A stretch of DNA of 64,000 bases from Carpediemonas membranifera BICM. Lineage: Eukaryota > Protista > Fornicata. Made by a program: the position numbers and the translations under genes. Location of the stretch: positions 34,114-98,113 of the forward strand of contig JAHDYR010000053.1 of NCBI GenBank assembly GCA_019828565.1. Direction: 5' to 3'. Positions 32,505-64,000 of the stretch are shown here, piece after piece. The first letter of the stretch is position 1; every line of letters begins with the position of its first letter. The notes beneath the pieces were generated by a model. That model was not told the origin of the DNA. It was given only the letters and a program-made list of their open reading frames with translations, and searched no databases.

Positions 32505-32578
32505 TAGATAATCTAGGGTTTTTAGGCCCTAGATTATCTAGAAAAAATCGTAGATTATCTGCCGACTTTCACAGTATG
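32505..32578 (-). repeat. Right TIR of element 1
   Basis: Exact reverse complement of 9006-9079. Confidence 0.97.
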
Positions 32579-42671: not shown

Positions 42672-42904
42672 TTCGGGAGGGAGCAAACTTTTATGTAATC
42701 AACGACAAACAGTCTAGCGAGCGGCGAGGCGCAGCCGAGCTTCGCGAGCCTGAGCGCAGCGAAGCAGTTTGAGGCTATGGGGTGCGTCGGGGTCCTCCGT
42801 CGCTCCATCCAGTGAGTCGCTGGCGAGTCAACAAAACCAACAAGAACACTCTGAAGCGCTCTGCACGAGCCGATTGCTACACCAATATCAGAATTGAGTA
42901 ACAA

Positions 42905-44788
42905 TTAGTGGGAGAGGCCCAAATCCTCTGCTGCAGCATGTGCTGCGTCGCATTGCTTGATGAACGCTGCATATGTGTGCACTTGCCCTCTCATGCATGC
43001 CAAGAAAGCGTTATCAGCCATCTCGCGGACCTGCTCAGCCTTAAGACCAAGTTCATCGCGCAAATCGTCCGTCCAGCCCCTTCCGTGCACTCTTCCAACG
43101 TCACCGTTGTGAAGCGTCACCGCGGGTATGAGCTTGACGTCCCAGTTGGAGTACTGGGCGCGCTTGCTCGTCATGGCCTGAGACACGTGGTTGCTGACGA
43201 CGTTGTCAATGACGATTGCCTTCACGCCAGGTTTCGTGAGGAGGATGTCCGCCCGCGCCTTCATAGGCTTGGTCCGGTCAATGGTCCACTCACTGGCCTT
43301 GTTCAACCACACCTCGGACTGGACTCTCCAGCCATAACCCTTCAGGTCTCTCACCAGCCCGTCCTTGATAGCGTTGTGACGCTCGTCGTCCAGGCCTCCA
43401 CGTAGGCATGGGCAGCACAGGGTGTGAGTAGCGTTGCACACAACGGACTGGTGGTTCACGGTGCGTGCCCTGCAGAGAGGGCAGACGTCAAATCCGGGCG
43501 TGAATGCGGGGAGGCCCAGGTGATTGCGGAAGATGGGGGCAACAGCGGCATCGGTTACCGAGCGCCCAAGAGAGGTCGGGTCGACCATCATGAACGACCG
43601 AACGACGTTGGGCGAGACGGCGGCACTCACAGAGAGCTTGGTGGCAATAGATTCCTCAACGAGGCGAACCAAGTTCTTCTGCGTGTGGTCGGCGTCAAGA
43701 GCCCTCACATCGTCCAAGCCACTAGGCCAGTTCGATGGCGTGTTGAGCTGGGGCGGGAGACACTTGATGGCACCCGTCACGCTGTCAGGTGAGCGTGTAA
43801 CACCCAGCCCTGCCAGTTGTCTCGTGGCCGCGAGGAACGCGGGAGCCCACACGACTGATGGCATTGCCAGCGCAAGCCCGCGTCTTTCTACCGGCATACT
43901 CAGGCGGAGAGCAAAGTCGTCATCGACCTCAGCCTCGCTCGACAGGATTCGGAGGATGGCCGGGACCGCCTCTTTCTTCTCAAATCCGAGCTCAGCCTCG
44001 TAGAGACCGTTGCCGACTCCACCCGTTGCGGGGGGAACGTTACGGAAGAAGTGCTCCCACTTTGTGAGCGCACAATACTTCGCAATGATCAACGCAGGGG
44101 CAGTTGCCTCCGGCCCCTCCTTGGCCACCATCTCTCCGGCAGCGTTAAGGAGTTGCATCACGCGACTGTTGACCTTGGCCAACTCACCCATCGCATGAGC
44201 AGCGGACCCAACCGGAACGCCCACGAGGTTTAGGCTGCGTCTTCTTGGGACGCCTCCCGAGGTGTTGCCGTCGGTAACGTCTCTGTGCGCCACAACGCAC
44301 TTCGACTTGTTGAGCCGCAGGCCGACTTCGAGGAACTTCTCCCTCGCGATCTCGACAAGGTTGTTAGCCTCTCGGCCGACACCGGGCGTCTGCAAAGGCC
44401 GATCAGTCGTGGCGACTAGATCGTCTTGGTACGCTTGGAGGTGCCAACCCGGGAACGCCTCGCGCAGAACGTCCAGAATGGGCTTGATGCCCAGGCTGAA
44501 CAGAATAGGGGACAGGGGATCTCCTTGATGTATGCCCTCAGCTGACCTCATCACTCCTCCTGACGTGGAGAATAGGAGCCCTTGGCGATACATCGTAGAC
44601 AGGTAGGGCATGAGAGCAGGCATGTAAGCGCGTACCACGTCGAACATGAACGCCCTAGATAGGCATCCATAAGCGTTCGATAAGTCGAGGGAGACAACAG
44701 TTCCTCCCTCCTCGTAGACCCTGGTCACGCTGTCACTCAGCCTCTCCAGGCCGCACTTCTCCCCCACCCCATACTGATCCTTGAGGGT
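42905..44788 (-). mobile_element. Family A unit, 3' part, interrupted by giant element 2
   Basis: Identity to A stops at ttgagggt (44788). Confidence 0.93.
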
Positions 44789-45251
44789 CATACTGTAAGA
44801 ATGGCTAGAGTCTCCCGGGAGATACCCTGGAGATACTCCAAAAAGTGCAAGAAAAAATGAGATTCACTAGAATCTGTTTCACATTTCACATATTTCACAA
44901 GAATATGTGAAATGAGAAGCAAAGCTAGTGAATGTCATTTTTACTTGTCCCTCATCGTCTGTATGGCATCTATAAACAAATCGCGTATCTCTTGCAGCAG
45001 AAACTCTGTGTCATTCACCCTTTTGTTGATTTCTTCTTCCTTTCGCAAGCCCTGAGCAGTTTTTCGGATTATTTTGTAAGAATCTTGTACTTTGGCAACT
45101 TCCACGAGCCCTGACGTTACCGTTTCTACCTTTTGGTGGCTAGTTGCTCGAATCATGATCGACAAATGTCGCAGTTTTAGGTATTGTCAATGCCAGGAGT
45201 CTACGTAAATAGACAAATGTAACAACGTAAACAGCTTGGATAGAAATTCTC

Positions 45252-46476
45252 ATGAATTCAGAAGTGTCTGTACCAGAACCTATTGCTGCTACGCCCCCCA
45301 TCAGACAGTATGGCAACAGTAAGCTCGCAAATCTCCGTCGTTCATTTGTTACAGCCGTTGTTTCTTCAGTATTTGAGGACGACGAGGCAACTGACCTCGG
45401 CTTGAGTGCACGCGACATCCATAAGGTACTTCTGGAGGTCCAGCGCAGGGTCGCCGCCGAATGCCCTGGGTTCAAGTCAATTGAACTCCGGGAACAGGTC
45501 AGGCGGACGACTGTTGTCGGCGTTACTACGTTTATAACAGCAGTTAGACCCTCTGCGGAGTACAATGGCTCTGTCATGCAGCACATTGCTGTCCGTAGTC
45601 AGCCCTGCCATGCCGAGTTCCGCCAGATGCTCTCAGAAGTTCTCTCAGATGCTGGACTGAACGATGTTTCCGACTCAATCAGCCTTGAGAACTTGCCTGT
45701 GATCAACCGGGTGAGATATAAGCCTGTCAAGCAAAAAGGCAACGGTCAAATCGACCCCGACTACGATGATCAAGGCAGAGATCCCACCGATACGGTCGAC
45801 TACGCAACTGTCTTCACTTGGTGTTGGTGATGAAGCAGACACACCTCAGTCAACGACAGATCGATCGGTGCCGGTTCGGAAGAAGATCGTCTTTGACGAC
45901 GAGGAAGCCAAGCGACCCAGGCTTGGTGACGACGATCTGCAGCAGGTGTCTAACAACGTGTCCGATGCTGTTGTTGACCGTATTAAGGTCCTGATCAACG
46001 ACGTTGTCTCAGAGACCCGTGTGAGAGACCCGCCTACCGAACCCGAGACATGTAAGACGACTTTCCTTAGCCTTCATCAGCGCAAAATGCTATTTGGATG
46101 TCTTGTGTGTGGTACCCCCGAGTGGTTCTTCAATCCAGACGGCACTACGTTCAGGAGATGCTGTGCTTGCAAAGGTTTCCTGCACGAGCAATGTGTCAGG
46201 ACGAAGGGCAAGAAGGACTACTGTCCCGCGTGCTATATTACCGGCTCTAGCAACAAGTGCCAGGCGTGCAAAAAGGGCCTAAGATCCAAGAACACGAAGA
46301 AAGCAGAAGAACAGGCTTCTACTCTTCTTTGCTGCCGAGGCTGTCACTGGTGGTACTGTGAGCATTGCTCTGAGGAAGTGCAGTACACCATTGATGGCAA
46401 GTTGTACATCGTTCCCCTCTGCAGCAAATGTAAGGTTGTCTATAAGCGAGTAGAGGGCATGAGACCGATTGTTTAG
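45252..46476 (+). CDS. PHD-like zinc-finger protein (two frames)
   Basis: CLVC..CCACKGFLHEQC..CPAC plus a second Cys cluster; homolog of 27442-28725. Confidence 0.7.
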
Positions 46477-46519
46477 TGTTTAGTGAGAGATGATCATAAA
46501 TTGTATATATATCTGTTTA

Positions 46520-47524
46520 CTACACGTCTCTCTCAAGCGCACGGGTCATCATGCTTATGTATCGATCATTCATAAGTCTTCTCTGGTCGGTTCTTAACGG
46601 GTCATACTCGTTGACATCAGAAACGATGTCTTGCATTTCAGGAAGAGGAATGGGCCGGGCATAGCTAGTCTCAGACATGATGACCCTGGCCTCGTTGGGA
46701 AATGACAAGGAACCATTGGCTATAATCCGTCTTCCTGCTGAGCCAGGCGCGAAACGATAGCCAGAGAAGTACTTCGTCAGAAAGAAAAGAGGATTGTCGA
46801 GGCATGTCACGCGGTAGAGCCAATAGGCGTCCTGGAGAACAAGCTCATGCGCCAGAACCTTCTCAGGAGTGAGGATAATGCATGTGTTCTTGTACTTGGC
46901 TGTCGAAATAGCACTGCACAGCTGAGACTCCTCAGATCTGTCGAGTCCGGAGCAGGTGGCAAAGTAAATCAGACGCACACGCGTCGATCTCACCAAGGAA
47001 GGGCTCTCGAATGACCTGAGGATGAGCTGGACCAGATCATGGTGATACAGAAACTCGTTCGTAGACGTATCAATGATCATACGCGACGTTTCTGTATCAG
47101 AATGACCCGATATCACCCAGTAAGTGTCGAAGTTAGAGTACTGCGACGCCAACTCCTCAAGTACCTCGGCCAGATGGGACGTAGACTTAAAGGTGCGGGC
47201 AACGGCAGTCAGCCACTCATCATCAACGAGCTCTAGAGCCGTCTTGAGCTTGAAATGATAGCCAGATGAGTTGGCAAGACTTTCCACGCGGAAGACGGGG
47301 TAGGGCTGAGTCGGGGTCTCGAAACCATGCAGCGGCTCGATGGTGATTAGCACCCGTCGGTTAATCAACTTCTCTGTTGTAAAAGGACACTCGTGAGAGG
47401 AAGAAGACTTGAAACCGATCCCGCGATGTCCACGCCTGAGCTGAACCTTACCACAGACACATTCAAAGACTTCTTGGTCCTTACTGATGCGTCGCGTGCC
47501 GAATTCTCCGTATTTCTCGTCCAT
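46520..47524 (-). CDS. Putative caspase-fold (clan CD-like) cysteine protease
   Basis: WVISGHS and LIYFATCSG suggest a His/Cys dyad, each residue following a hydrophobic strand. Confidence 0.5.
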   Translation of the reverse strand: MDEKYGEFGTRRISKDQEVFECVCGKVQLRRGHRGIGFKSSSSHECPFTTEKLINRRVLITIEPLHGFETPTQPYPVFRVESLANSSGYHFKLKTALELVDDEWLTAVARTFKSTSHLAEVLEELASQYSNFDTYWVISGHSDTETSRMIIDTSTNEFLYHHDLVQLILRSFESPSLVRSTRVRLIYFATCSGLDRSEESQLCSAISTAKYKNTCIILTPEKVLAHELVLQDAYWLYRVTCLDNPLFFLTKYFSGYRFAPGSAGRRIIANGSLSFPNEARVIMSETSYARPIPLPEMQDIVSDVNEYDPLRTDQRRLMNDRYISMMTRALERDV

Positions 47525-47719
47525 TTGCAATGTGCCATTTTTTTTTCATGAATGGCACATTTTGATTTGAAGCAAAGGACAAGCTTTTTGATCCAAGTAA
47601 AGAGGTATACCTTCATTGCTACACTATTTATGCATGCTACTGCAGTATTGTTCGGATCTGATCAGCGATGCGCCTGTTCTTCGGATCGGGAGTTGCGAGA
47701 AAAAAAAGAGAACGAAGAT

Positions 47720-48720
47720 ATGGCGAGAAGAAAGATGCCCGCAAGGAAGCAGCAACCGGTAGGTAAGAGAAGGACTCAAAATCCACCCAACAAGACTTTT
47801 TGAGTCATCTGCTTCTCCGCAGGATCAACGTCCTGCGGAAACGACTGTAACGGCAGCATCACCTCCTCCTCCGCCTCCCGAGTCGCCCGAGGATGGTAAG
47901 GAGCAAGATTCTCCTCCTCCTCCGCCTCCCGAGTCGCCTTCCCATTCATCCAGCTCGTCTGAAGCCGAGGAGGACTCCGTCGAGGGGTCCGTCATGCACG
48001 TCCACCCTAGGTGGACGCATGTTCTACCCGGGTTCAGACCTGCAGGACGTCAAGCGGCTGATTTCGGATGAGATAAGCCTTCAGGCCATTCCTGCTCCGG
48101 CCTGGATCTCATCCGAGACCCGTTGCGACCCCCGTCTGACCCAGGAGCCCGACCATCCGGCCCTCAATCGGACGCAGAGCGTCGGCCGAGGCATGATTGC
48201 CACTGAGGATATCTCAGCTGGCACATGTCTCGGCATATACCTCGGGAAGCTGATTCCCGATGCTGAGACGGCCAGCAACAACGGCCAGATGGTGTTTGTT
48301 TCGCATATTCCATTACCATTACACAGCATGTCATTCGCTGACAGTCAGGTCGCCGTCGATGCCATGTCGGCCGCAGCGGGTGTCCACCTGATTAACCACA
48401 GCCCTGACGATGTCAACTGTGAGTTCGTGGACGTCTTGGTGGATGGCCTGCCAGTGATATCGGTCAGGGCCACTGCCAACATCGTTCGCGGCGAGTTCTT
48501 GCGCATCGATTATGGCGAGACCTACTTTGAGGCCGATGAAGAGGAGCACCCGGTTGCTCGCTTCAAGAGTCTCGCCATAGATGACCCTCACTACCTCGCT
48601 CGAAAGGTGGAGCAGTTCAAAATACTGCAGGTCAAGCCGCAGCCCCGCAAGCGGAAGACCAAGTCCAACCCCGCCCGTAAGCGCTTCCACAGCTGCGCGC
48701 ATGACTCAAGGCAAGAGTGA
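47720..48720 (+). CDS. SET-domain lysine methyltransferase; probable 33-nt intron at 48294-48326; N-terminus frameshifted
   Basis: GRGMIATEDISAGTCLGIYLG, HLINHS and EFLRIDYG. Confidence 0.85.
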
Positions 48721-48754
48721 ATAAACTTGAAGAGATATCAATTCAATCAATCAT

Positions 48755-50129
48755 TTATGAGCGGGTGACATCCTCCGGACGAGTAGCACGCTTCTCGGGC
48801 TCTGCGGCAGCTGCCTTGCGCTTGCGGTCCGGAAGACTGTAGACACAGGCATGACGATTCTCGATGACGATGAACTGAGTGAGCTTCATGCTCTCACAAA
48901 GACCTAAGATCTTGTCCAGCGTCGCATCCTGGATGGGCAAGAACTCTGAATCTTCCCAACCTTTGTGGACCCAGAGGCAGGTAAGATCCTCGTCGATCTG
49001 GGTGATGATTACCGGAGTGTGACTCAGCTCTACACTGGCCTGGATGGCCTCATGGTCTGCCCAGGGGAAAGGGGAGCCAGGCATCTCAGAGAACGGGTCG
49101 CCCTCGAACCCCTTGCCCTCACAGAAGGATCGGATGTCCTCGTACAGCTGAAGCTTCTCACCAACAGTAGGCTGGGACCCAGTCCTGATGAGATGCATGG
49201 CGCTGAGAATGCATGAGCCATCCCCAGGCACCTCAGACCGCTTCAGAGAGCTTGTATCGTTCTTAAACTTCTTAGCGGTCTTCTCCATGATGGTCTGGAC
49301 GTCATCTTTGGGGTCTGCGGCCACCAAAGCCTCCCGATCCAGGTCTATGACCTCAGCCTCCTTCTTCAAGGGCACAAGCTTCTCCGTCTCGAGCTTTTCA
49401 ATCTTGGCCCGGGCTCGCCAAAGCTCCCTCTTCAAATCACGGATCGCACCGTTGTGTTCCACGGCAAGATGGCGGCGCAGGAGGCGCGATGTGCCACTCA
49501 GGGTACTTCTGTGGACGGGAGAGTCCATCAGAAGCGCGTCCAGGTGCCTTATCCGGTCGAACTGCACGTCGACCGGGTCCGACAGCTCAGGCTCGGCGTT
49601 GTTCTTGAACGAACGGACGACCCCCGACCTTCCTGGCTTCACCTTGCGCATTATGCGCTCACGGAGCAGCGAAAGGACTGAATAAGCAGGAGTTATTTGG
49701 AGTACTTACCTCCAACGTCGTGCTCGTGATCCGAAGACACTTCTCGGCGGACCTTCTGGACAAGGCTGTCGTAGGCATGATCTCCCATGACCTTCTTCAG
49801 CTCAGCCGATGTCGTGATCAGCTCAAGCTGAGCCTCGGCAGTTTCTCTTAGGTGCAGGATAAGGTGAGGCGACCTGAAGAGCTTGCGAAGCGTTTTCCAG
49901 CCAATATCTGTGTAAAAAGGTATGGGGAAAGTACTTACGATCACGAAGAAGGGCGGTGAGGATCTTGTCATCGGGCAGAAGGAACTTACGAAGAAGTGAG
50001 CACTTGATCATCTCCCTGCGCGTTTGATGAGGCCTGACTGATCTCAGCGCTGTCATAGAAGATAAAGAACTGCTTACCAAACGTTTTCGAACGCTTCAAG
50101 AGCATGTAGAAGTCGAAAACCGATTGCAT
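48755..50129 (-). CDS. OTU-like protein, 427 aa after splicing three introns (50050-50077, 49908-49938, 49678-49709)
   Basis: VPGDGSCILSA, WA and NRHA. Exons of 52, 111, 198 and 923 nt give one open frame. Confidence 0.8.
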
Positions 50130-50133
50130 GATT

Positions 50134-50299
50134 ATAAGGCTCTCAGGACCTAATGAAAAAAATTCATAAGGCTCTGAGAGCCTAATAAACCATGCGGAAA
50201 AATGACCAGTATCAGTAGGCAACGGCGCGGGAGATTCATTAGGCTCTGAGAGCCTTATACACGATTTCGAATTGGTGTATAAGGCTCTGAGAGCCTTAT
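50134..50299. promoter_or_regulatory. Cluster of palindromes ATAAGGCTCT-G-AGAGCCTTAT
   Basis: Copies near 50166, 50238 and 50279, plus a degenerate one at 50134, just upstream of the OTU start. Confidence 0.6.
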
Positions 50300-50828
50300 G
50301 AACTCAGAGGAGGTCCTCGGGGCACTTCGGTGCAGAATTTTGATTGGGCATCTGATTGGACCATGGGGCGGATGCTCAGAGGGATGAATGCGAGCTCAAT
50401 GGAGACCATTGGACATGTCAGAGATGGCATGTCCAGGTGAAGGTCCATCATGGAAGGAGCCATTCACGATAAGTCTTCTAAATGTTGTGTTGCGAGCGTC
50501 TGAAGGGCTTTCTCTGGATACCGACCAAGATGGAGGTCACGTGGATCAACGGACGATAATTGCGGTATTCTGGCCTTGTATGCCACTCTTAAATCCATTG
50601 TTTGATCCATTCCCGCGTTTATAGTTCATCTCAACGCTTCCTCGACGAGTTACAATTGTTGATGTTGTTTAGGTTCTATTACAGGCCATTCGAGGCCACA
50701 GAGCTCTCATGATGTTGTTTTAGTGATATACACATGCTTGCCAGCGTTTGAGGATCGATACTCTTCTCCTTTCTTCGTTTGGTTTTCTAATTTCGTTGCG
50801 AGCATAAAGTGCACCTTGAAGAAACGTT

Positions 50829-51515
50829 ATGCCTCCGAAACGGAGTAATACTGCTAAGAGCAAGGGCAGAAAGCGTCTAAACGCTGTGGAAATGATTTCT
50901 ACTTACTTAGAGAAGGAGCACGCTGCTGGAAGCATCTCCGCTGCCGATGTCGCCACCGGAAACCGCATTTGCAATGAGGTGGTTGACAGACGCCCCAATG
51001 ACCTCCCCACATTCGTTCCGGAGGATCTTAGGGATGAAGCGGAGTTCCGTTCTCTCGATAGCATTGAGCAGATCATGGCGCAGTACAAGGGCGAGTCTTC
51101 TGAGGCCAAGGAGAAGCGCTTCAGGGCCCTCATCAGCCTGGACGCCGAAGGAGATGAGGTCGACCATGGCAGCCCTCTCTTGGCAACTGTCCGTGAGTAC
51201 CGCGAGCTGTTCCACGGCATCCCTCAGTCGGTCCGCCCCCGCGCTTACGCCTTCGTCGCCCAGAGGCTTGGTATCTCTGTCGACAAGGTCAGAGAGGTCC
51301 TTCTGGAGAGTGTGTGCCGCAAGGACTCTAAGCTCATCTTCGAGCGTCCGCAGCTTGTCCTCAAGAAGCACTCGAAGACCTTCAAGGACCTCGCCGCTGT
51401 GATTGAGAAGAGGAACGCTGCCCGTGCCGCTGCAGAGGCTCGTGATGTTCTGCGTATACCCGTTTACGCGAGCCTCCTGCTCTTCCACGCAGCTAACGTC
51501 AACTCAAATGAGTAA
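50829..51515 (+). CDS. Hypothetical protein with basic NLS-like N-terminus (228 aa)
   Basis: Clean ATG ORF ending TAATAAA. Confidence 0.65.
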   Translation: MPPKRSNTAKSKGRKRLNAVEMISTYLEKEHAAGSISAADVATGNRICNEVVDRRPNDLPTFVPEDLRDEAEFRSLDSIEQIMAQYKGESSEAKEKRFRALISLDAEGDEVDHGSPLLATVREYRELFHGIPQSVRPRAYAFVAQRLGISVDKVREVLLESVCRKDSKLIFERPQLVLKKHSKTFKDLAAVIEKRNAARAAAEARDVLRIPVYASLLLFHAANVNSNE

Positions 51516-51638
51516 TAAATCGACTGCTTCTTCATTTAATCTTCATTCTCTTCCTCATCTTCCTTCTCAGACAGCAGATGGTACCACTCTTCCTCGAAAT
51601 AGTTCTCTTTCTGGTAATCCTTACGCATCTTTGATCTC

Positions 51639-52391
51639 TTATCCACGATCTTTTTGGACCAAATCCCTTCGGTTGCTGTCGTAAAGGGCGATGATTATCT
51701 CACGTTGCTTCTTGCGCGTCGGGTGCGGGGTAACACTCTTCCTCAGACGCTTAATGTAGCGGTTGAGCTTGTCCGAGGGCTTGGTGGGCAGGGTGGGTTG
51801 GGTGGCTTGGGTTCTCTTTGGGGGAGGCTGGACCTGGTCCACAGAAGTGAAAGCCGTACCGTAGTCGACGGACGGGGGAGCCCTCCAGGACTTCATGGCA
51901 TATCCATGGCAAGCAACGAGACTCTCACCGAGCTTCGTCCACTTGTTCGGGCCGTATGTTGCCTCCATGGTCACCAGTTTCGCATCATCCAGGTACTCCA
52001 TCGTGGACTTTTGCTTGGAGATGGACATCCCCATACGCTGGTAGGCTGGCACAAGAGAACTTACACACTGCAGGCGGATCCTCTGTCCGGCAGAGGCAAC
52101 CGAAAGAAGAATCGTGGCGAGACCATTGCCCCTGGCATAGAATGCCGTGCGAATAACCACAACATATAAGTCCTGGCGCAGCTCGGAAGGGGTTTCATCA
52201 GTAGCTTCGGTGTTGTATGACTCCTTCGTGAGCAACAAGGCCGAAATGATGGAATCAGTCTTGCAGTCACGAATCGCAACCAATCTGGGTAAATACCTGG
52301 GCAACACTGGGTGAACAAACATGAAGAAGCGATGATCGATGTCATCAACTCCTCTCGTGGCAACGTCCTGCTTAAAAAAACGTACGGACAC
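51639..52391 (-). CDS. GNAT-family acetyltransferase-like protein (start uncertain)
   Basis: Motif A-like ARGNGLATILL and motif B-like LVPAYQRMGM. Confidence 0.65.
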   Translation of the reverse strand: MSVRFFKQDVATRGVDDIDHRFFMFVHPVLPRYLPRLVAIRDCKTDSIISALLLTKESYNTEATDETPSELRQDLYVVVIRTAFYARGNGLATILLSVASAGQRIRLQCVSSLVPAYQRMGMSISKQKSTMEYLDDAKLVTMEATYGPNKWTKLGESLVACHGYAMKSWRAPPSVDYGTAFTSVDQVQPPPKRTQATQPTLPTKPSDKLNRYIKRLRKSVTPHPTRKKQREIIIALYDSNRRDLVQKDRG

Positions 52392-52622
52392 TGGGGATGA
52401 TGTCTGACTTATCAGAAAGTCTTACGTACTGTATATAAGCCTTATGGGCTGCAAGAGTATCCTCTGTCCAAGATTCTTTTCCCCGTTTGGTTCATTTTCA
52501 CAAACTTTTTGTGAAACCTGCGAAATGTGAAATGTGCCATTCATGAAAAAAAGTGGCACATATGAAAAATGAATGAATTTATCACGGAACCATCTTACAT
52601 CACTTTATATCACGCGGATGCC

Positions 52623-54968
52623 TCAATTCTGTCTGCTACACTCTCCACACAGGCAGCAAACTAACTCTATGCCATGGTCCGCCAGACTGCATGACATCGT
52701 GCCCTCCTCACCCCACGTCAGCGTCGTATGCTCTTCTACAAACTCCCACACTTCATCAACAGTCTCCTGAAAGGTCTGGATCATCTCACGAGTTGGCTCG
52801 AAGGTCACGGTGGTCAGTGTGCGGACACCAAACCAATGCTTCGCATCCTTACAGCAGTCGTGAACTCGCACACACTTGAGTCGCTGGAGCTGGGGGACAG
52901 AGTAGTCCTGCCGACCAAAAAGAACGCATGCCCGTCAGGAAGGAACACGCGAGAGTTGTCTGCTCGATCAAGCAAATGCCCTCAAGGACTGCCTTCCTGT
53001 GCAACTTGGCTGCTACCTCCTGGTTCTTGATGAACTCTCGCTCAAAGTACTCCTCTAGGATATAGAACAGCGGCACCTTGAGATGCTTGTGGCACAGGGG
53101 CTGCGTCGTGAGTCTGCTGATGCTGTAGAGGTTCTCAGCGCACGGTTTCTCCTTCGTCTTCGCTTCGCTGCTTGATAGCAGGGATATGGAAGTCTTATCC
53201 TTGTTAGGAATGAACGCAATCGTGACGTGAATGAGGTGGGCCACTGCGGCAGCCATGAAGTGAAACGCGACAGCCGCGTCAGTCACAGGTTCGGACGAGT
53301 AGTACATGGCCTGGAGGTAGCCAATGAGCCGAATGATATCTTGAATGCACTCAGGGAGAGCAACGTAGTCCTCTTGGTCGTGGCAGCCATCCTTACACGT
53401 GCGGACGACTGCTCGTTACAACCTACGGTCCTATCGATGCTTCGCATGGACGACATACGGCCAAGCTTGAGGTTGAGGAGCTTATTCTGGATGATCTCCT
53501 CGCGGGACCCGCGGGTGGTGGGATGCTTCTTGAAAGAACCACAGATATGGGCAACCTGCTCGAGTAAACGGTGCGAGTCGTGCATGAATGGAGGGCATAT
53601 GACGATCTTCTCAAGAGGGATGACACTACAATTCTCGAACACCATGCGTTCATTGGTGAAATCGCCATAGATTGCAAGTACATCTTGAACTCGGTTCGGG
53701 TCGTCGACTTCAGCCTGGTATGCTGTCTTATCGTCCAGGTTGTCCTTGATGGTGAGACGATGGCGGCCTGCTATCGGGTGGAGCGCCTTACTTTTGTGGT
53801 AAATCGTGTTGCAAGGGTGTGGATAGTTGGGCCGGCCCGACTTTCTGGACAGCATGTGGCGGAGGGCGGCATGATCGCCCATGACGATGACATGGTCGAA
53901 GATTGTGACCTCACCAGTGTCTCTGATGGGTATCTGACTCGTGTATAGGCGCTCAATCTCCTTCTCGACGCGAGAAAGAGACTCTTCCATCAACAAATCA
54001 CCCTCGCTACCCATATACTCGACTATACGGAAAGGTGGAGTAATCTTGTTGGGGAATGTGAAGCCTGTGGGGTCGTAGATGCGGAGCTTGAAGGCAGCAG
54101 AACCCCCTTTCCACCCGTCAAGCCATAGTAGGATCTTCATGGGGCTAAACGTGACTCCAACCCTGTTGCCAAGGGCGTTCTTGCATCGAACGTAGTTGGG
54201 CTGGTCCGACTCGAGCCATTCCGGGTGGCGAACAGCTTGCTTGAGGTAACGAACGGCATCAAACCAGACTCGATCAACCTTGTCCCATGTGGAGCTGTTG
54301 AGCCGCTTGCCGAGGGTGACTCCCTGGGTCTGCTTGAGCTCAGGGCGATGACTTGTGGCCTCATCGCTCGTCTCGTAGTGAAGATCAAGCATTGGCTTCT
54401 CCCACTTGAAGTCAATGACGTTCTCCGCGTCCGTCAGGGGCTGGATATCGACACCCTCGTCCACCGTTAGGCGATTGGTGCACTCGAGTCTCGACTTTGT
54501 GCCATTTCTGCCCCACCGCCAGGTCGTGTTGACTGTGACAGACTCCACAGGGACGAGATGACCCAAGAAAGCAACCTCTGGTCTAGTCAGCGCTGCAACC
54601 AGGCCGTTGATCTTGGTGATATTGACCTGCAACTGCTTCACGAAGATATCAGCAGCCTTGCTGGAGATGATTGGCATATGAAGTCGCGCAGAAAGACTAC
54701 GGATGAGCTTAAAGAGCTCATGGGTTGCGTTACAACCCGACTTGATGTACATCAGGATAGAAACAAGCTCCAAAATCTGCTTGTAGTTGTCAGTTTCCTC
54801 AGTTGAGACCTCGTGCTGTCTCCGCAAGCGTTCGTGGGTGACAGCAATACGCGCGTGGTCACGTACGAAGACATCGAAGGTCGGGGCGACTCCTCTATGG
54901 GAACGTACTGCACGCAAGAAGGGTCGAGAGTCGTGCGGGTCGGCGAAAAATCTCGGATCGACCTCCAT
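52623..54968 (-). CDS. Transposase of element 2; frameshifts near 53375 and 52900
   Basis: LWLDGW, PPFRIVEY, VMGDHAA, PPFMHD, GCNEQ, EEYFEREFI and CCKDA are all colinear with 28823-31432. Confidence 0.8.
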
Positions 54969-55467
54969 GCAGTGCCAACAATGCGAGAGGTACTTCCATT
55001 ATAGCTGTGTCAGTGGCTACTTGGAGGAGCGAATGGCATACCCGGCATCTAACAGGGCCGATAAGCAGAAGATATCCATCTGCGATGACTGTAAGGCAAT
55101 CAATGGTAACGACGAGTGCTTTCATCGTACACCTCCAACCGAGACCACCCAAGCAGCGGACTGTGGTAGAAGTATTAAGGATGGACCCAGCATGCTCTGC
55201 TACTTTTGTTCCAACTGGTTCTGTCCGGATCATATCGCGGACACCGTTTTTGACACTGGAACTGACATGTTGAAGCGTCCTTCTCGTCGTGTTCCGGTGT
55301 GCGTGAATTGCTTTCCTCGCATTCAGAGAGGCCAGCGACAGTTCAACGGTGAGTATACCAACGCTGCCCGCGCTATTACAGAGCCATTGACACTCGCGGA
55401 TGACGAGGCTCGTGATGATGTCAGTATCCGCGAGGAGGTGAGTGATGAGGAGGATGACCAAGAGTGA
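54787..55467 (+). CDS. Second PHD-like zinc-finger protein (start uncertain; ATG at 54967)
   Basis: MQCQQCERYFHYSC..CDDC and CYFCSNWFCPDH..CVNC. Confidence 0.65.
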   Translation: MSVSSVETSCCLRKRSWVTAIRAWSRTKTSKVGATPLWERTARKKGRESCGSAKNLGSTSMQCQQCERYFHYSCVSGYLEERMAYPASNRADKQKISICDDCKAINGNDECFHRTPPTETTQAADCGRSIKDGPSMLCYFCSNWFCPDHIADTVFDTGTDMLKRPSRRVPVCVNCFPRIQRGQRQFNGEYTNAARAITEPLTLADDEARDDVSIREEVSDEEDDQE

Positions 55468-55781
55468 TAAGTGGAATAAAATGAACGAATGACTGATGCG
55501 GCACATTCTGTTTACGCTATACGACGATTTTAGAGAGCGCCAGAGAGGTGCTGCAGGGAGAGAGCTTGTGCTTGCGTATCCTGAGGGATGCGGGATGGGA
55601 GGGGCCGACGTAATTGGCCAATCCACGTTTGTGGATCACCTGGTGTCGTCCATACCGGGCGTCTCTCCGCCACAGGCTGTGTTGCTGCGCATGGAAAGCA
55701 GTGTTAACTGTGTTCTATTGCACGATAGCACGGGGTTATTGACTGATGCGGCACCTACCTTAAATTGCTCGTCATCCACAG

Positions 55782-56795
55782 TTGTGGATGGACCGATATC
55801 GCGCTAAGCATCGCCAAGCACCTCTCAAAGGGCAATCATCCGCTCGACAAGATCATCACCTGTTCATTTCACCATGGAACGATGAGCAGCTCCGCATCCT
55901 TGGCGATAATGCGCGAGTTCTTCAGCTGCTCGCCATGATGGTCCCTTGGATGCGGAAGATCTTGGCCTCGCCTGCATTTAACCCCGGGTGCAAGCCCAAT
56001 AGCACCGAGAAGGACCTCCTCGGCAAAGAGCTCGAACAGGACGTGGATTCATCAAGAATCCTTCGTGAGATGTCCAATCGAGCGGCGTACAACAAAGCCC
56101 ATGCCAAGATCATTCGTGATCTCGTTGAGTACCGGAACCGCGCAGCTCACAATGAGCTTGAGCCCGACACCCTGCCCAAGGTCCTGGAGCTGGTCGAGAG
56201 CTTGGCCCAGGCCTTCTCGGTTCCATTGCACGATAACGTCAGGGCGTTCATCGCGCTGCTTAAGTCGCCAGTGTCGCTCGTTGCGACAAGTGAACATCAT
56301 GCTCTGACGAAGAAGGTCAGCATTCTTGAGGATGAGATTGAGAGGCTGCGTAGCGGCGGCCGTAAGACCATGCTCAGGCTGCCAGGTGTCAGGTCTCAGC
56401 CGGAGCCCACCACTTTGGAGCAGGCAACGATGACGACTTCGGACGTCGGAGACCTGGATGAGCCGAGGCCCAGGCCCGAAGACACGGGCAAGACGCGCGG
56501 TACGCTCATGTCCCGCACACTGACTGCTAGCCAGGTGGACCAGCTAGCTATGGCCAGAACGCATGACCCCCCGCTTGTCCTGTCAGGACGTTGCATCGTG
56601 TGCGGGGGCTCATGCGAGACCTCAGAGTGGGCTTGCCGTCGTACCTCAACGACGACACCCAAAGATCCTTGCCGAACGTTGATTCGGAAGGTTAGGACTG
56701 GGAATACTCGCGACGTCTCTGTCTACCTCACAGATGAGGCATTTGAGTGGGTCAAACGTCGCGATCAGACAGGCAAGAGAGCGAGACAGGAATAA
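55782..56795 (+). CDS. Swt1-like HEPN plus Cys4 finger protein
   Basis: RDLVEYRNRAAHN and CIVCG..WAC..CR; homolog of 10778-11707. Confidence 0.7.
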   Translation: MWMDRYRAKHRQAPLKGQSSARQDHHLFISPWNDEQLRILGDNARVLQLLAMMVPWMRKILASPAFNPGCKPNSTEKDLLGKELEQDVDSSRILREMSNRAAYNKAHAKIIRDLVEYRNRAAHNELEPDTLPKVLELVESLAQAFSVPLHDNVRAFIALLKSPVSLVATSEHHALTKKVSILEDEIERLRSGGRKTMLRLPGVRSQPEPTTLEQATMTTSDVGDLDEPRPRPEDTGKTRGTLMSRTLTASQVDQLAMARTHDPPLVLSGRCIVCGGSCETSEWACRRTSTTTPKDPCRTLIRKVRTGNTRDVSVYLTDEAFEWVKRRDQTGKRARQE

Positions 56796-57232
56796 ATGAA
56801 TGTATATGTGCATGTCTGGGCCTCAGCGCTGTCGTTCAGGCCAATCCACGTTTGTGGATCCGTGCAGTTTATGGCTTATCGACCGGACATCTCCTGAACT
56901 GAGCGCCAGGGGGGCGGAGGTGGCGTTGGCGTGGGGCGTGGAGGCGCTGGGGGCGGGGGTGGCGTTGATATTGGGCAATTACATAAAGTGCACGGTGCTT
57001 GGAATTTCATTCCAACCTCAAAATGGCGGGAAAGCATTATTGGAAGGAACTAGTGGCAGCTATGCGGTTCTTTATACTGCAAAAGCAACCAGCTGTCGTC
57101 AAAAAGCGCGCCATCTACCATCAATAACCAACATCTGCGTTTCACTCCACTGTTCTCGGTCGTTAATGCACAAAAATCACTAAACAACATCAGAAAGGAA
57201 CAAAAAGATAGATACTATAGACGTCCGTTTAC

Positions 57233-57962
57233 CTATTCAGCCAGGCGCAGGTACTGACGCGCCGTCTCTCGGGCAGAAGATATACCATGGAGGGATGCGT
57301 TCTGGGCAAGGCGCTTGAACGACACAACGAACAGCGGAAGTCGCTCCCACTCTCCTTGGGCCCAGTAGTGATGGTCGTACTCGAGTGATAAATATTCGTA
57401 GGGGTGAATTGTTCGAACGCACACGAAGAAGAGAAGCGGGAGCAGTTTCGTCTCATCAGCAGCAACACGAACAAGAACGTGACCAATGTGGCACTGCACA
57501 TTGGTCACGACCGGGTTGTCGTTGATGCGATGGACACCGATTGTTTCAGGGTTGGCGCTGACGCAAAAACTGGGTTCCATCGATGAGGTAGTCGTAGTTA
57601 CCATTTGACTGGCGCTCATGGATGACCTCACCAGCATAGACACCGACCAGAGAACCGACGTCGATTCGGTGCGACGAGATGACCCCTTGGCCAACATCGG
57701 TGCCCATGAGGGACTTCTGTGGCTCAAGAAGGATCCCATCTGCGGTCTTAGCGATGCCGTTCTCAAGTAGTTCTTCGCCTGCATGCTCAGAGTCCGCCTT
57801 CTTGCCACCTGCACCGAGGAACTGCTCTCTATCCTCCTTAGAGAGCTTTTTCAGAGACATCAATTTCTCGTAATCATCTAAAGACATTGTAATGTTCTCC
57901 TCTTCCTCTGATCCATCTGTAGCAACATGCGGGATCATGATAGTGTGCATTCCTGTTGTCAC
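57233..57962 (-). CDS. SET-domain protein (frameshift in the A run near 57567), counterpart of 11968-12623
   Basis: GQGVISSHRIDVGSLVGVYAG, GVHRINDN and EYLSLEYDHHYW. Confidence 0.75.
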
Positions 57963-58016
57963 TCACAATTGCGAAACTCGCTCTCTGTTCCATAACCTGC
58001 ACATCGGATTTGAACG

Positions 58017-58619
58017 ATGACGACAGACAGCCAACAGTGGATCGCATTTGAGCATCTTGCGGCTCTATACACCACTATAAAGCGTGGTAAGATAGAGACC
58101 GCAAGTCAATGCATCAACATGATCGAGGATTCCTGTGTGGAACGATTTGTGATGTTCTGGCTAACTACAGAGAACGCGGCGACGATTTACAACGAGAAAA
58201 CGGCTGCTCTGCAGGAGAGCTATGGAGACGGAGTTGTGCGGTGCTCGGGTACGGACAGCATCACGAGAACAATATCATCTTCCTCTCGTGGTGTCGAGCA
58301 TGTATCGAGCATTGAGCGAGCATCAAGCGTCATGCAGCGTCACTTGGAGTTCCTGCATTGGGGCAAGATCGCCCTTTCCTGTAGCGGCAGGACGCTAGCT
58401 GACTTTGCGACTCAGCACTTCCCCTTCCGTGTCTCTGATATTGAACGCAAGATTGTCTTCGTGATGGTCACCGTTCCCAATGAGTTCATGGTTTGGTATA
58501 AGGCGCTTGTTGACGAGAAGATCGATGAAGAAGAGTTTACCTACTACATCATTTATCGTCTTAACTCCAGCGCGAAGGATCACATGGTTGTTAATGCCCT
58601 AACCTTCAAATATGAATGA
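58017..58619 (+). CDS. Orphan cargo protein P homolog (200 aa)
   Basis: Clean ORF; weak C-terminal similarity to 17041-17952. Confidence 0.6.
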   Translation: MTTDSQQWIAFEHLAALYTTIKRGKIETASQCINMIEDSCVERFVMFWLTTENAATIYNEKTAALQESYGDGVVRCSGTDSITRTISSSSRGVEHVSSIERASSVMQRHLEFLHWGKIALSCSGRTLADFATQHFPFRVSDIERKIVFVMVTVPNEFMVWYKALVDEKIDEEEFTYYIIYRLNSSAKDHMVVNALTFKYE

Positions 58620-59113
58620 TCAGAGAGAGTGATGTGGTTAAAATGGATTGCAAATGAGTCTTTTTAATGTCTCACCACCTGTTTGGGCCTCAGCGCTGTC
58701 GTTCAGGCCAATCCACGTTTGTGGATCCGTGCAGTTTATGGCTTATCGACCGGACATCTCCTGAACTGAGCGCCAGGGGGCGGAGGTGGCGTTGGCGTGG
58801 GGCGTGGAGGCGCTGGGGGCGGGGGTGGCGTTGATATTGGGCAATTACATAAAAGTGCACGGTGCTTGGAATTTCATTCCAACCTCAAAATGGCGGGAAA
58901 GCATTATTGGAAGGAACTAGTGGCAGCTATGCGGTTCTTTATACTGCAAAAGCAACCAGCTGTCGTCAAAAAGCGCGCCATCTACCATCAATAACCAACA
59001 TCTGCGTTGCACTCCACTGTTCTCGGTCGTTACTGCACAAAAATCACTAAACAACATCAAAAAGGACTGTTCATACGTTATTAAACATTGCTTGCTACTT
59101 CTGTTTCATCTTA

Positions 59114-60460
59114 TTGTCGTTTACAGCTGTGTTGTCCTCAACAAATGCCAAGACAGATCAACGAGGCGTTCGCGGCTTCCCGTTGAAGACTTGCCATTGC
59201 CAGAGAGAGTGCCATGCCTGGCACGTCTCTCTTCTTGTCTGCCGCGTGAAGGAATCGACCAGGCTGGATTCATGTGCAGCTTATGCAGCAATGGACACTC
59301 TGGAGTCAGAACTGCATTTGCAGCAGCTTATTGCTGCTATTGAGCTTACTTGTGGCCCTGTCCCATCAGAAAGAAACAACAGACAGGCTCGAAAGATCGC
59401 CGCGGTCATTTCTGGTGAGTTTGACAGAGCATTCGACCGTTTCTTGCGCGATCTCTTCGCCGACAGCCCGTCTATCATGAAAGAGCTAGATCTCCTGGCG
59501 GAGATTCCCCAAGAGCCCATTGAAGATGTGCCTGTCGCGGTAGGAGAAACCGCCAAGCCTGCATCCAAGCTTCAGCCCAAGACCACCAAGTCTGCGAAGA
59601 AGAAGGTGCAGACAAAGAAGCTGAGACAGCTGGCGCCGCGACGCGCTGGTACGCCTGCCCCGACACAACAGCAGGTCATCGTACCACTCAAGAACCTCAG
59701 CCGCCAGGAAGAGACAAGCCTTGAAACGTGGATTCGCAGCGTGCCGAAAAACTGTGCCATTACCATCGATATCTCTGGGATGGATGGTTTCAACGCCAGT
59801 GAGTCGACCCTTCACGAGCTGGAACACTCATTCCAGGAGAACAACGTCCGAGTTATTCGGGCCTGGATTGCTTACCAGCTTTGTCTCTACGACTGTTTGT
59901 CAAGCCAGAAGATTAAGTATAACGAAAACGTGGCCCCCAGCGACGCCCCTGCTCTCAGTGGCTCTTCAGCAGCAGAGGATCTTTGTCCAGGCGAACAAGC
60001 AAGGTGCACTTTCCACACGCCTTAACATAACGAAGACCCCTTCTACAACAACGTTGTGGAGCGTCTGAAACTGATGGGTGAGACAGAAAGCATGATGTCA
60101 AAGTTCCACAACATCATTGGTGTCATCATCATCCACTTCGCCGACTTCACTTCCTTGCTGAAGAACCGAATGATCCCGAAGGATAACGATACAGTCAGGG
60201 GCTTGAGCACCCTCATTGTTCACAGTCATCTGTGCATGGTTTACTCAACGGCGAAAGATATCCGTCCTGAGATCTACAATGCTCTGACGACAAGCAGTAC
60301 ATTCCCGCCAGACCTTATGGCGTTTGCAAGAATGGCATTTGGTCTCGGACAAACCGCGGCGGTGACCCATGAGTCGCCCGAAAAGCAGAAGCATGCGGAC
60401 AACACAATAGAGGATGATTCAGAGATCGAGACAAGTGGTAAGAGGGTGAGGACTGAGTAA
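59114..60460 (+). CDS. Orphan cargo protein Q homolog, split frames
   Basis: AWIAYQLCLYD motif shared with 15227-16507. Confidence 0.6.
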
Positions 60461-61181
60461 ATGGATTGCAAATGAGTCTTTTTAATGTCTCACCACCTGT
60501 TTGGGCCTCAGCGCTGTCGTTCAGGCCAATCCACGTTTGTGGATCCGTGCAGTTTATGGCTTATCGACCGGACATCTCCTGAACTGAGCGCCAGGGGGCG
60601 GGGGGTGGCGTTGATATTGGGCAATTACATAAAAGTGCACGGTGCTTGGAATTTCATTCCAACCTCAAAATGGCGGGAAAGCATTATTGGAAGGAACTAG
60701 TGGCAGCTATGCGGTTCTTTATACTGCAAAAAGCAACCAGCTGTCGTCAAAAGCGCGCCATCTACCATCAATAACCAACATCTGCGTTGCACTCCACTGT
60801 TCTCGGTCGTTAATGCACAAAATCACTAAACAACATCAAAAGGACTGTTCATACGTTATTAAACATTGCTTGCTACTTCTGTTACATCTCCTTAGGACAT
60901 TTACTTCTGATTCTGTTTCTGCTCTCTCTTCTCCAGCACCTCTGCCATCTCGAGACCTGTCAGCAGCATTGATCTCATTCCTGCATCACAGAAAGTATCA
61001 ATCTCTTTTCGTCCGCTCAATCATTGCAATAAACTGCCTGTGCAGTCTTCCGCGCACACCTTTTGCGCACTTATTGGTGCTCACCTGCCTGTATCCCTTG
61101 TGGCATGTGTCACAGCTGACGTTCTCGCGTCCATGAAGGTCTCTACCACACACTATGCAGCGCCGATAGAAGACTTGACCC

Positions 61182-62303
61182 TCAAACCCTCGCTGACAGC
61201 AGTCGGTCAGTCTCTTTCGCTGAGCTGCAGACAGGAGTGACCTCTTCTGTATCATCTAACAGAAGCGGACTCGGCTTGGCGACGCATTCATGCACGCGCA
61301 TGATGACCTTGAGCTTGTCAAGACATTCGGCAGCAGTGGGACGCTTCGCAGGGTCGAAGTGGAGCATCTGCATTGCCAGGTCGTACAGGCTGAGACAAGT
61401 AGGTGGCGTGGTGCCGCGAATCGGGAGCTCAGAGTTCACGTTGACACACTCGAGGCAATCTTTGAAATGTGTCTGTGCCTGAGGGTGACAACTGCAACTG
61501 CCCACCATAGAATTGGCACCAGTTCAGCAAGCTACCAAGCTTCAGCATCTTCTTCTTCTTCTTGTTGTCGATCTGCGCCATGTTTGCACCCATGTCAGTC
61601 ACCTTCGCGGCAAAGGGGGACTTAGAGAGACCGTTAACGAGCATCATAATGACAATACCGCAAGAGTAAATGTCCGATGCAGGTGTCACGACATAAGAAG
61701 TGACGGAAAGAGCCCCTACCGTCATGCGCGCGAGCTTGGAGGTGTCGCGTGCAGCAGGAATCACTGAGCGCGAGACAAGGTACTCGTAGAAAAGCTCTGG
61801 GGGCAAATATCCATGGGTGCCGCGATACTCGGATGCGAATCTCAGTTGTATGGCCCACCTGTCGTCGCCATTAGCCGGCTTCCTCATTGCAGACCCAAAA
61901 TCAATGAGGTATCCCTTCTGACTCTTGCTGAAGAGGAAGTTGTCTGGCTTAATATCGCAATGGACAACCCCGTGGTCATGCATGTAGCATACTGCCTGCA
62001 GCAGATGCGAAACATAGCGGAACTGCACGCTGGAGTGAGCCTTGCAGATGCCAGCGAAGGGGTACAGTTGACCAAAGGAGCCATGAAGGCTGGATCACGG
62101 TCGACAAAACCTGTATCGACGACAGGGAGGACATGCGGACTGTCCTTGAGCGCTAGCAGAGTGGGAACCTCCATACCATAATGCTCATCAACTTTGATCA
62201 CGACCTGCAGCTTTTCAGGTTCAAAGTTGTGCAGATATTGTCTACTATTACCAGGTAAGGAAGTAAGTCGCTCCAGCTTGTCGCTATCTAGCTCGAACAC
62301 CAT
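61182..62303 (-). CDS. Ser/Thr protein kinase, frameshifted; possible Cys-rich tail to about 60998
   Basis: VVIK, VHCDIKPDN, DFG, GTHGYLPPE, SDIYSCG and DPAKRPTAAECL. Confidence 0.88.
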
Positions 62304-62638
62304 GCACAGGTAGCTGTGTGAAATTCGGTCTTAAAAGTGCATTTCGCGACAGCTAGCTGTGCGTCACAACGAGAGAAGTAGCAGTGGAAAACAAGCCAGG
62401 ACTGGCTTATGAATGGTGTTTATGGACATCAGCTATGCTCCAATCATAAACTCTTCCTCTTTACAATGTCAGATGAAGGAAAAGACGATACTGTCGGCAG
62501 TATCGCTCTCTGAGCGCTCCTCATCAATCACATTCTCTTGAATCTCCCCCATCACCATCTCTGCCCGCCACCTCCCCGCCATGCTCGTCGTGGTCGATCT
62601 TTGGTTCCTCATCGGCACTCTTGCATAAGTCCACCTCC

Positions 62639-63667
62639 TCACCAAAGGCGCCCTCCTCGCTCTCCCTCGCGAGCTGGCACCTCGTAGTGCATCCACTCTG
62701 CCTGGTAAGCTGGCTCGTCGGACACCGCCTCCTCGTCAGTATCGCCCTCTCTCTCGCCCTCTGGCATCTCTGTCTCGCGAGTCAGCGAGCCGAACTCCGC
62801 CTCCTTGTCAGCCTCGCTCTGCCTCTCTTTCTTCTTAGTATCGTGAAGCTCGATCATTCTGGCCTTGAGCCTGTTGTAAAGCCAGCCATCGAGCATCGGC
62901 GGCACCAGGTCGGCAGAGCTTCGGATCTCCGGGTTGAGATCAAAGATCGTCGGGCGCCGCGTGGTCGTTAAGTGACTGGACGCCAACTGGTGCCTGAACT
63001 GCTCATCGGTCAGGCTGATGCGCTTGTCCTTAATGACCTTCTGAGGCTTCTCCTGCGGTCTGCCGCGGCGCTCTAGCGTGCCGATAGACTGCATCCTATC
63101 GGTGGACACGTCGATCCGCTGCGCAAAGCGAAGCATGCGAACCGTCAACCCCTGAACCTTGAGCGCCTCCGATACAGCACTGGCCTGCGGGAATCCCGAT
63201 TTGAGCGTGCCAAAGCCCATCCAGCTCGGGCACGAGGTAAGGTCTATCGCATCGGGGAGATTACCTTGGAGATACGAATACTCCCAGCCCGTCTGGTTGA
63301 GCAGAATGGCAATGGCGCCATACGGGCTGGGGAGACTCTCAACTGATGCAGGGGACACCTCTTCCTCCTCTTTCCAGGACAACGGCTTCGCAGGGTGTGG
63401 CAAGTCGAAGTTCCGGAAAGACTGAACAGCCGAAACGATCCTCTTAGCCATAGCAGGCGTCTTTGTAGCGAAATAATGCGCCAAATAAGTCGTAACGTTG
63501 TCGCTTCGGACAATCTCGATGCCCTTCTGCATTTCAGCGCCTGTTTCCTGGCAAATGCTGGCCAAAACGTCCTCCAGGTGCTTCTTGTACACACTACGCG
63601 TCTTCACTGAAACTCTATCAGACCAGCGCTTAACAATATCGTCGTTATTTGCAGCTAGAACCTCCAT
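62639..63667 (-). CDS. Degenerate tyrosine-recombinase-like protein, homolog of 24334
   Basis: SVKTRSVYKKHL, IVSAVQSF, ILLNQTGW and GLTVRMLRF. Confidence 0.6.
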   Translation of the reverse strand: MEVLAANNDDIVKRWSDRVSVKTRSVYKKHLEDVLASICQETGAEMQKGIEIVRSDNVTTYLAHYFATKTPAMAKRIVSAVQSFRNFDLPHPAKPLSWKEEEEVSPASVESLPSPYGAIAILLNQTGWEYSYLQGNLPDAIDLTSCPSWMGFGTLKSGFPQASAVSEALKVQGLTVRMLRFAQRIDVSTDRMQSIGTLERRGRPQEKPQKVIKDKRISLTDEQFRHQLASSHLTTTRRPTIFDLNPEIRSSADLVPPMLDGWLYNRLKARMIELHDTKKKERQSEADKEAEFGSLTRETEMPEGEREGDTDEEAVSDEPAYQAEWMHYEVPAREGERGGRLW

Positions 63668-63681
63668 AACACGAGTTTTTC

Positions 63682-63882
63682 TGTTGGTATTGCAATTTCA
63701 GAATTTCGTACATACAAAATTATCAAATACTTGGATTCGACCTAAACTTGGCTCAGATCCGCAATCCTGAGGCTGGAGTGGAGTTCATGGGAACTTTTAA
63801 AAATTTTTAAAGTAGTCATGAACATCCAAATTCTAAGACAATCTCCGGTACTGGAAGTAATTCTGAAATTGCAATACCAACA
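63682..63882. promoter_or_regulatory. 24-bp perfect inverted repeat (63682-63705 and 63859-63882) upstream of the YR-like gene
   Basis: TGTTGGTATTGCAATTTCAGAATT and its reverse complement. Confidence 0.7.
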
Positions 63883-64000
63883 CAAGTTATATTTCTGAAA
63901 ACCGAATACACGGTGATACTGTTATCTATTAGCTCCAGTAGGGACCCAGGCCGGAGTTTTTGTACACCCCTACCCGCTTGCCTCGGAATTCGGACATGCC

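Follow-up and report, generated by a model that had tools for sequence, protein, structure and literature searches.

In eukaryotes, most cut-and-paste transposons carry the genes for one or two proteins. Giant transposons that carry chromatin-related cargo are already known, and the closest described counterpart to the two elements considered here, which lie in a 64,000-nucleotide stretch of the Carpediemonas membranifera BICM genome (contig JAHDYR010000053.1, positions 34,114 to 98,113; hereafter the window, numbered from its first letter), is the giant Plavaka of the red alga Bostrychia (17.4–19.1 kb; bioRxiv 10.1101/2025.02.11.637652), an EnSpm-related DDE transposon with separate accessory genes, one of them a SET gene, that was proposed to modify its own chromatin. 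As far as the accessible part of that preprint describes them, its accessory genes are three (one unknown, an adenine methylase-SET and a ParB-oxygenase), and OTU, GNAT, kinase, PHD and HEPN genes are not named there, whereas the Carpediemonas elements encode at least ten separate genes, seven of which are kept across subfamilies. The enlarged EnSpm elements of Chondrus (16–20 kb, 4–5 open reading frames (ORFs)) are likewise large and multi-ORF, and Helentrons have an OTU-like protease fused to a rolling-circle protein (both from the available part of PMC6431247), in contrast to the separate, intron-containing OTU gene found here in an element with terminal inverted repeats. Transposon-encoded epigenetic writers or regulators also occur in HarbingerS and oomycete MuDR elements with SET, in fungal transposons with TET/JBP and in VANDAL elements with VANC, but according to the available sections of the article that treats them (PMC12730594) these belong to other transposase superfamilies and usually have one accessory activity, and among such factors only VANC has been shown to counter silencing. 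New here are the transposase lineage and the broader kit: our literature search turned up neither this lineage nor its gene set, although a Repbase entry or a mention in a supplement is possible, and the main text of the C. membranifera genome paper has no word starting with 'transpos'.

In the reading that we favour, at about even chances, the two elements represent two subfamilies within one lineage of giant cut-and-paste transposons that use a RAG1-like DDE transposase, and their conserved accessory genes serve for self-protection by keeping the chromatin of the element itself open against host silencing. If the enzymes do act on chromatin, this would be a broader counter-silencing kit than in the described systems compared above. 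An original prediction, made from this stretch of DNA, had proposed a transposon-borne toolkit of chromatin and ubiquitin enzymes; that the toolkit is transposon-borne is upheld by inverted ends, a target duplication, a DDE fold, multi-copy linked cargo and conservation between subfamilies. The prediction spanned 45252–62303; the boundaries of the second element are wider, from 44789 to beyond 64000.

Element anatomy and transposase lineage

About 21 kb of the window (1–9005 and 32579–44788) is a head-to-tail array of two alternating non-long-terminal-repeat retrotransposon families (RVT_1 Pfam matches, E 2e-13 and 2e-14), including truncated and recombined units; copies are 99.3–99.9% identical, the two families share 65% amino-acid identity, and the units presumably combine a reverse transcriptase with a C-terminal cysteine/endonuclease-like region. 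This array is interrupted by two large insertions, elements 1 and 2. Element 1 (9006–32578) is a complete DNA transposon of 23.6 kb, with inverted ends that begin CATACTG and match at 74 of 74 positions (9006–9079 against 32505–32578), a 2-bp target duplication (CA at 9004–9005 and 32579–32580, by comparison with two empty-site copies), and internal duplications and inversions at 12858–20802 and 25144–27239. Element 2 (44789–64000, thus at least 19.2 kb, with its right end outside the window) starts with the same CATACTG inside a retrotransposon ORF that has intact twins at 706 and 35229; a matching inverted end was not found within the window. The termini of element 1, CATACTG..CAGTATG, are of the 5'-CA..TG-3' type with a 2-bp target duplication; for element 2 the left end alone is seen. 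Named database proteins with 96–100% identity to window ORFs came from C. membranifera, a free-living metamonad.

The transposase of element 1 (28916–31432, plus strand, 838 residues) is open and has the DDE residues, and that of element 2 (52623–54968, minus strand), recognised by its similarity to the element-1 type (26–38% identity) and by its copies P0037 and P0049, has two frameshifts and lacks its first 68 codons in this copy. The element-1 transposase ORF had no Pfam match, and a sequence-profile search of the PDB identified nothing; ESM Atlas features identified it as RAG1-like (0.94, 172 shared). A structural model of residues 289–735 (pLDDT 83, pTM 0.86) matched RAG1 (E 4e-8) and Transib (3e-4) in Foldseek, and in VIA the P-element transposase (Z 16.6, root-mean-square deviation (rmsd) 3.8, 288 aligned) and RAG1 (Z 16.3, rmsd 4.8, 369 aligned) were tied at the top, followed by Transib (12.2) and a next row at 7.6. 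A profile search of 1.84 billion representatives gave 23 proteins, 16 with E <1e-30; among the 17 that were looked up or named, nine were named as C. membranifera (P0034–P0037, P0039, P0047–P0049 and P0051; ten counting P0001) and the others looked up were unnamed or hypothetical records on contigs of 3–16 kb, which means that more than one assembly contains the lineage. In a quick tree built without reference families, the Carpediemonas and environmental rows were intermixed.

Two Asp residues are invariant in all 18 rows of the transposase alignment. Of the 14 strong rows, 12 have the EExFER motif, in which our choice of the catalytic Glu is a putative assignment. According to the available sections of PMC12730594, the CMCT clade (EnSpm/CACTA, Mirage, Chapaev, Transib, Plavaka, ESTA, Lanisha and RAG1) is defined by a C(2)C and an H(3-4)H motif and has 5'-CA..TG-3' termini and target duplications of 2–5 bp. 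The Carpediemonas elements resemble it in their termini, 2-bp duplication and RAG1-like DDE fold, but C(2)C after the second Asp was found in none of the 14 strong rows (and in two of four weak matches), and H(3-4)H before the last Glu was not seen in the strong rows, which have at most one His there, at a position mapped from RAG1 numbering with RAG1 itself absent from the alignment. A Pfam scan of 11 members of the transposase family gave, for all 11, no Plavaka, EnSpm, Chapaev or Transib match at E up to 1. The model thus points to a RAG1/Transib/P-like DDE enzyme without the two zinc motifs; by its termini and 2-bp duplication the transposon works like a CMCT element, and as both motifs are missing from the strong rows we have not filed it in that clade. 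A RAG1-fold transposase that lost the usual zinc motifs is a useful comparison for the evolution of RAG and Transib.

The named transposase copies concentrate on few contigs, five of them on one, and a further protein, P0059, has 31 initial residues identical to window positions 60137–60229 followed by the transposase of another subfamily, which suggests that elements may nest in each other elsewhere. This clustering and nesting, the position of both insertions (two of two) in the retrotransposon array, and the head-to-head arrangement, in either element, of a PHD-like gene and the transposase gene would fit an alternative in which the kit steers or licenses transposition, i.e., the PHD-FYVE-like protein would read chromatin for the transposase as RAG2 does for RAG1, insertions would go to repeat-rich chromatin, and the enzymes would open the target. 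However, clustering in repeats is also expected from selection against insertions into genes in a compact genome, two insertion sites are too few for a targeting claim, and the kelch-like domain of RAG2 was not seen in family scans of the window's proteins; we consider this alternative unlikely. A complex prediction for the transposase and the PHD-like protein, run without alignments, scored 0.00, which weighs neither for nor against such a partnership.

Conservation of the cargo between subfamilies

Returning to the reading of a self-protection kit, we regard the cargo as part of the element's biology because seven non-transposase genes are kept across subfamilies whose transposases are only ~27% identical. 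These are an ND-type SET gene, OTU, PHD-FYVE-like and HEPN-like genes, and the pairs 62639/24334, 58017/16951 and 59291/17977 (named by element-2/element-1 start positions), each of which aligned better than all shuffles (300 shuffles, 100 for the last two pairs); the SET, PHD and OTU genes that had been predicted in element 1 were in this way recovered as homologs. Identity at fourfold sites was 8–9% for the two halves of the ND-type SET gene (12 and 11 sites), 19% for the HEPN-like gene (37 sites) and 32% for the transposase (56 sites), and amino-acid identity for the three was 27–37% against the 1–9% expected without selection, the protein-guided local alignment used in this codon test being one that inflates identity. 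For these three genes, silent sites have thus reached or nearly reached saturation, yet the proteins can still be aligned. The comparison shows that the cargo has been conserved over a long time in two distant subfamilies, with an old core kit (ND-type SET, OTU, PHD-FYVE-like, HEPN-like and the three genes without an assigned family) and with SET1, GNAT and kinase genes as extras of subfamily 2; no GNAT or kinase homolog was found in element 1.

Copies elsewhere agree with this picture: exact matches to six of ten element-2 ORFs exist in the protein collection, in clusters of 6, 5, 7, 3, 4 and 4 members (90% identity) that lie on different C. membranifera contigs, and consecutive accessions on three other contigs link transposase-OTU-SET, OTU-SET and SET-unknown-PHD. 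Neither viral contigs nor JGI metagenomes, when scanned, yielded a related locus. A contig of run X1 skips a 32-base GT-AG intron (49678–49709) of the OTU gene, showing a spliced, low-level OTU transcript from some copy, the RNA label of runs X1 and X3 being a guess; run X2 gave the same contigs as X1 and is not independent. Contigs of X1 and X3 also lie on genes 50829 and 58017 and, for X3, the 5' part of SET2. The SET1 domain, the coding parts of the PHD-like genes, the kinase and the transposase are covered by none of them, and on element-1 genes there are none beyond repeat-like stretches; these blanks carry no weight.

Many ORFs are broken in this copy of element 2, whose transposase start is deleted, as might be expected if the cargo were passively captured host sequence that is now decaying. 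However, copy P0037 reads through both transposase frameshifts and P0049 supplies the 68 N-terminal residues missing here, other copies likewise read through the breaks, and four of six frameshifts examined fall in runs of 4–5 identical bases (such runs occur in 7% of 11-base windows), as do, for runs of at least three identical bases, six of six indel columns between retrotransposon copies. As the published assembly used MinION R9.4 reads (PMC8516963, available part) and indels of 1–3 bases set the window apart from X1 and X4 contigs in eight places, most of the element-2 frameshifts are likely assembly errors; some may be real, since the SET1 break is also present in P0032 and the second kinase break is unplaced. 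The transposase and the second PHD-like gene, which lies on the opposite strand and lacks its first pair of cysteines, begin at one and the same junction; the 5' ends of both genes were thus likely lost in an internal deletion, and this copy is defective. In addition, catalytic residues are kept, and SET1 has no close host paralog: only two proteins among 462 candidates were homologs, both from C. membranifera element copies. Passive capture, largely refuted for the shared core, thus seems very improbable.

Predicted activities of the cargo

All seven element-2 genes named in the original prediction (two SET, two PHD-like, a GNAT, an OTU-like protease and a kinase) were supported, with unequal strength: Pfam hidden Markov models matched SET1 and the kinase, the PHD-like genes fell below the cut-off, and OTU, GNAT and the SET2 halves had no match. 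SET1 (47720–48720, plus strand) has an acidic, proline-rich start and a break near 48021; its ORF at 47893 matches Pfam SET with E 1.7e-11, a longer copy, P0033, maps from 47720, and the NHS motif and the terminal DYG..Y are kept. SET2 (57233–57950, minus strand) is split by one frameshift in a T5 run near 57567, but when read through with X it aligned to the element-1 SET with z 36 and to SET1 with z 16.7 (0 of 300 shuffles as high). The element-1 SET (11968–12623, minus strand) contains a candidate 32-base intron (12232–12263), after removal of which 207 codons are open, and with SET2 it forms a second SET type, with ND for NH and z of 16–17 to SET1.

The OTU gene (48755–50105, minus strand) has short introns, the confirmed one and candidates at 49908–49938 and 50050–50077. 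Its ORF at 48794–49300 gave nothing in a PDB sequence-profile search; its structural model matched OTUD3 in Foldseek (E 3.8e-4), and in VIA the top 24 rows were OTU-family chains (best Z 9.4, rmsd 4.5, 129 aligned). Cys, Trp and His are kept in three subfamilies, some members of its seven-member cluster are named OTU by UniRef, and the third triad position, which we take to be normally Asp or Asn, is Cys or Thr. With the fold and both Cys and His in place, the model makes this a predicted deubiquitinase. Its element-1 counterpart (20986–23037, minus strand), OTU-like in its C-terminal domain, aligned with z 6.2. Upstream of the OTU gene lies a non-coding block (50460–50672) that is common to element 1 (23523–23735; 77.6% identity over 214 bases) and is likely regulatory.

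The first PHD-like gene (45252–46476, plus strand) encodes a double zinc finger, PHD (C4HC3) plus FYVE-like, with a frameshift near 45735 through which copies P0004 and P0007 (407 residues) read; its element-1 homolog aligned with z 7.4. The second (54967–55467, plus strand), which has lost its 5' part, had Pfam matches below cut-off (PHD E 0.0064, FYVE E 0.0023) and a weak pairwise z of ~3, and the element-1 gene (27442–27966, minus strand) is the one facing the transposase. A three-sequence profile of the fingers matched PHD3 of MLL with the first finger (E 0.009) and FYVE domains with the second (E 0.012), and the C4HC3 ligand pattern is complete in gene 45252 and partial in the others. The Ser/Thr-type kinase gene (61182–62303, minus strand) is spread over three frames; Pfam Pkinase matched 61432–61983 (E 1.2e-15), and VIK, HCDIKPDN and DFG, with the catalytic Lys and Asp, are present, while a glycine loop is not evident. 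A Cdc7-like reading of the kinase was dropped, as Cdc7 ranks well down the PDB list. The GNAT-like gene (51639–52421, minus strand) was recognised by ESM Atlas (0.94; 10 of 10 best family matches GNAT; 155 features shared, where same-family matches typically have 170), and no other hidden Markov model matched it. Its RGNGLA is presumably an acetyl-CoA-binding-type motif. The HEPN-like gene (55788–56795, plus strand) and its element-1 homolog (10778–11707, minus strand; HEPN_Swt1 E 0.015) both keep R-x4-H and have a C-terminal cysteine cluster; the element-2 gene matched Pfam HEPN below cut-off (E 0.004–0.03), and the two aligned with z 24.7 overall and 3.0 over the HEPN part.

Under the self-protection reading, the zinc-finger and putative DNA-binding products would bring the enzymes encoded by the SET, GNAT, OTU and kinase genes to the element. 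There the enzymes would place activating marks on lysines or take ubiquitin off histones or silencing factors, and the HEPN-like product might cut silencing RNA; the step from domain to histone substrate is one we infer throughout. The earlier suggestion that such cargo remodels chromatin, either to escape silencing or to reach repeats as targets, is plausible, and parallels have been published (PMC12730594; bioRxiv 10.1101/2025.02.11.637652; available parts of both), but a histone or ubiquitin substrate could not be assigned.

A series of observations tells against the self-protection reading. No substrate is assignable to any cargo enzyme. The best solved relatives of SET1 are bacterial SET effectors (E 9e-8), ahead of SETD8 (5e-6), and in the PDB search it fits no histone-methyltransferase subfamily clearly. 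The NHS motif, which we take to be the usual SET cofactor-binding motif, is replaced by ND in SET2 and the element-1 SET, so that its His is absent. The OTU neighbors are OTUD1, OTUD3 and bacterial and viral OTUs, presumably not histone-specific, and the GNAT-like gene is nearest to viral, bacterial and archaeal clusters. Of the two zinc fingers, the second resembles FYVE and not PHD, and at the place of the Trp of H3K4me3 readers the PHD finger carries Phe, Tyr or Asn. The fourfold sites were few for OTU (8) and PHD (7), the codon test for 58017/16951 showed no excess over neutral, and the depth of the putative RNA contigs is only 2–13. Finally, E(z) was not found in the metamonads studied (bioRxiv 10.1101/2021.07.16.452543); if the enzymes act on chromatin, the kit's targets would reveal the marks that silence repeats in a metamonad without detectable E(z).

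The affinities of the GNAT-like gene with viral and prokaryotic clusters, the viral and bacterial enzymes among the OTU matches, a kinase for which the PDB search singled out no subfamily and no chromatin-specific relative, and the R-x4-H kept in both elements would suit enzymes whose targets, reached in trans, are host proteins other than histones (factors of RNA silencing, DNA repair or the cell cycle) or the stability of the transposase, on the model of the OTU, kinase and GNAT genes of viruses. Against this, two SET types together with PHD-like fingers point to chromatin by the established roles of these families, and the SET cargo of other transposons has been read as histone-directed in the sources cited above for such parallels, leaving action in trans, in our judgment, rather unlikely. 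A more elaborate version of chromatin action appears doubtful, namely a private chromatin system in a host with highly reduced chromatin and replication machinery, in which the PHD reader would be a RAG2-like transposase partner and the methyltransferases, acetyltransferase, deubiquitinase, kinase and RNase would write an active state over the element and target repeats.

Other genes and minor sequence features

Three of the seven shared genes have no assigned family. Gene 62639 (62639–63667, minus strand, 342 residues) is 43% identical to its element-1 homolog (24334–25200, plus strand) and had no family match; genes 58017 (58017–58619, plus strand; z 7.0; also on an X1 contig) and 59291 (59291–60025, plus strand; z 7.7) correspond to the element-1 pair 16951 (plus strand) and 17977 (minus strand), which spans 16951–19257 and is duplicated at 14300–16507. 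Gene 46520 (46520–47524, minus strand, 334 residues) is multi-copy (cluster of five) without a family match; a resemblance of its His-Cys spacing to caspase/CHAT proteins had no database support and was not confirmed, and its product could be a second protease. Gene 50829 (50829–51515, plus strand, 228 residues; cluster of three; X1 and X3 contigs on the gene) has no assigned family. Near the left end of element 1 there is also a 220-residue ORF (10083–10745). A tyrosine-recombinase resemblance of genes 62639, 24334 and 10083 was not confirmed by family searches, and gene 10083 did not align to the other two above chance.

Short arrays of a 14-base unit (13826–13885, 20423–20482 and 26154–26213) mark junctions of the element-1 internal duplications; this unit is very deep in run X1, transposase copy P0036 appears to read into the same repeat, and it is possibly a telomere-like or satellite repeat. 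A different, 29-base palindrome occurs in the seven duplicated segments of element 1. In element 2, an intergenic segment of 390–470 bases is present in three copies (56813–57199, 58641–59111 and 60459–60889), and a hairpin-like 16-base motif occurs four times, in these segments and at 55621; both are possible binding sites or terminators. Rfam gave no match. A 27-base inverted repeat at 63679–63885, in a non-coding stretch near the window end, may be subterminal sequence of element 2.

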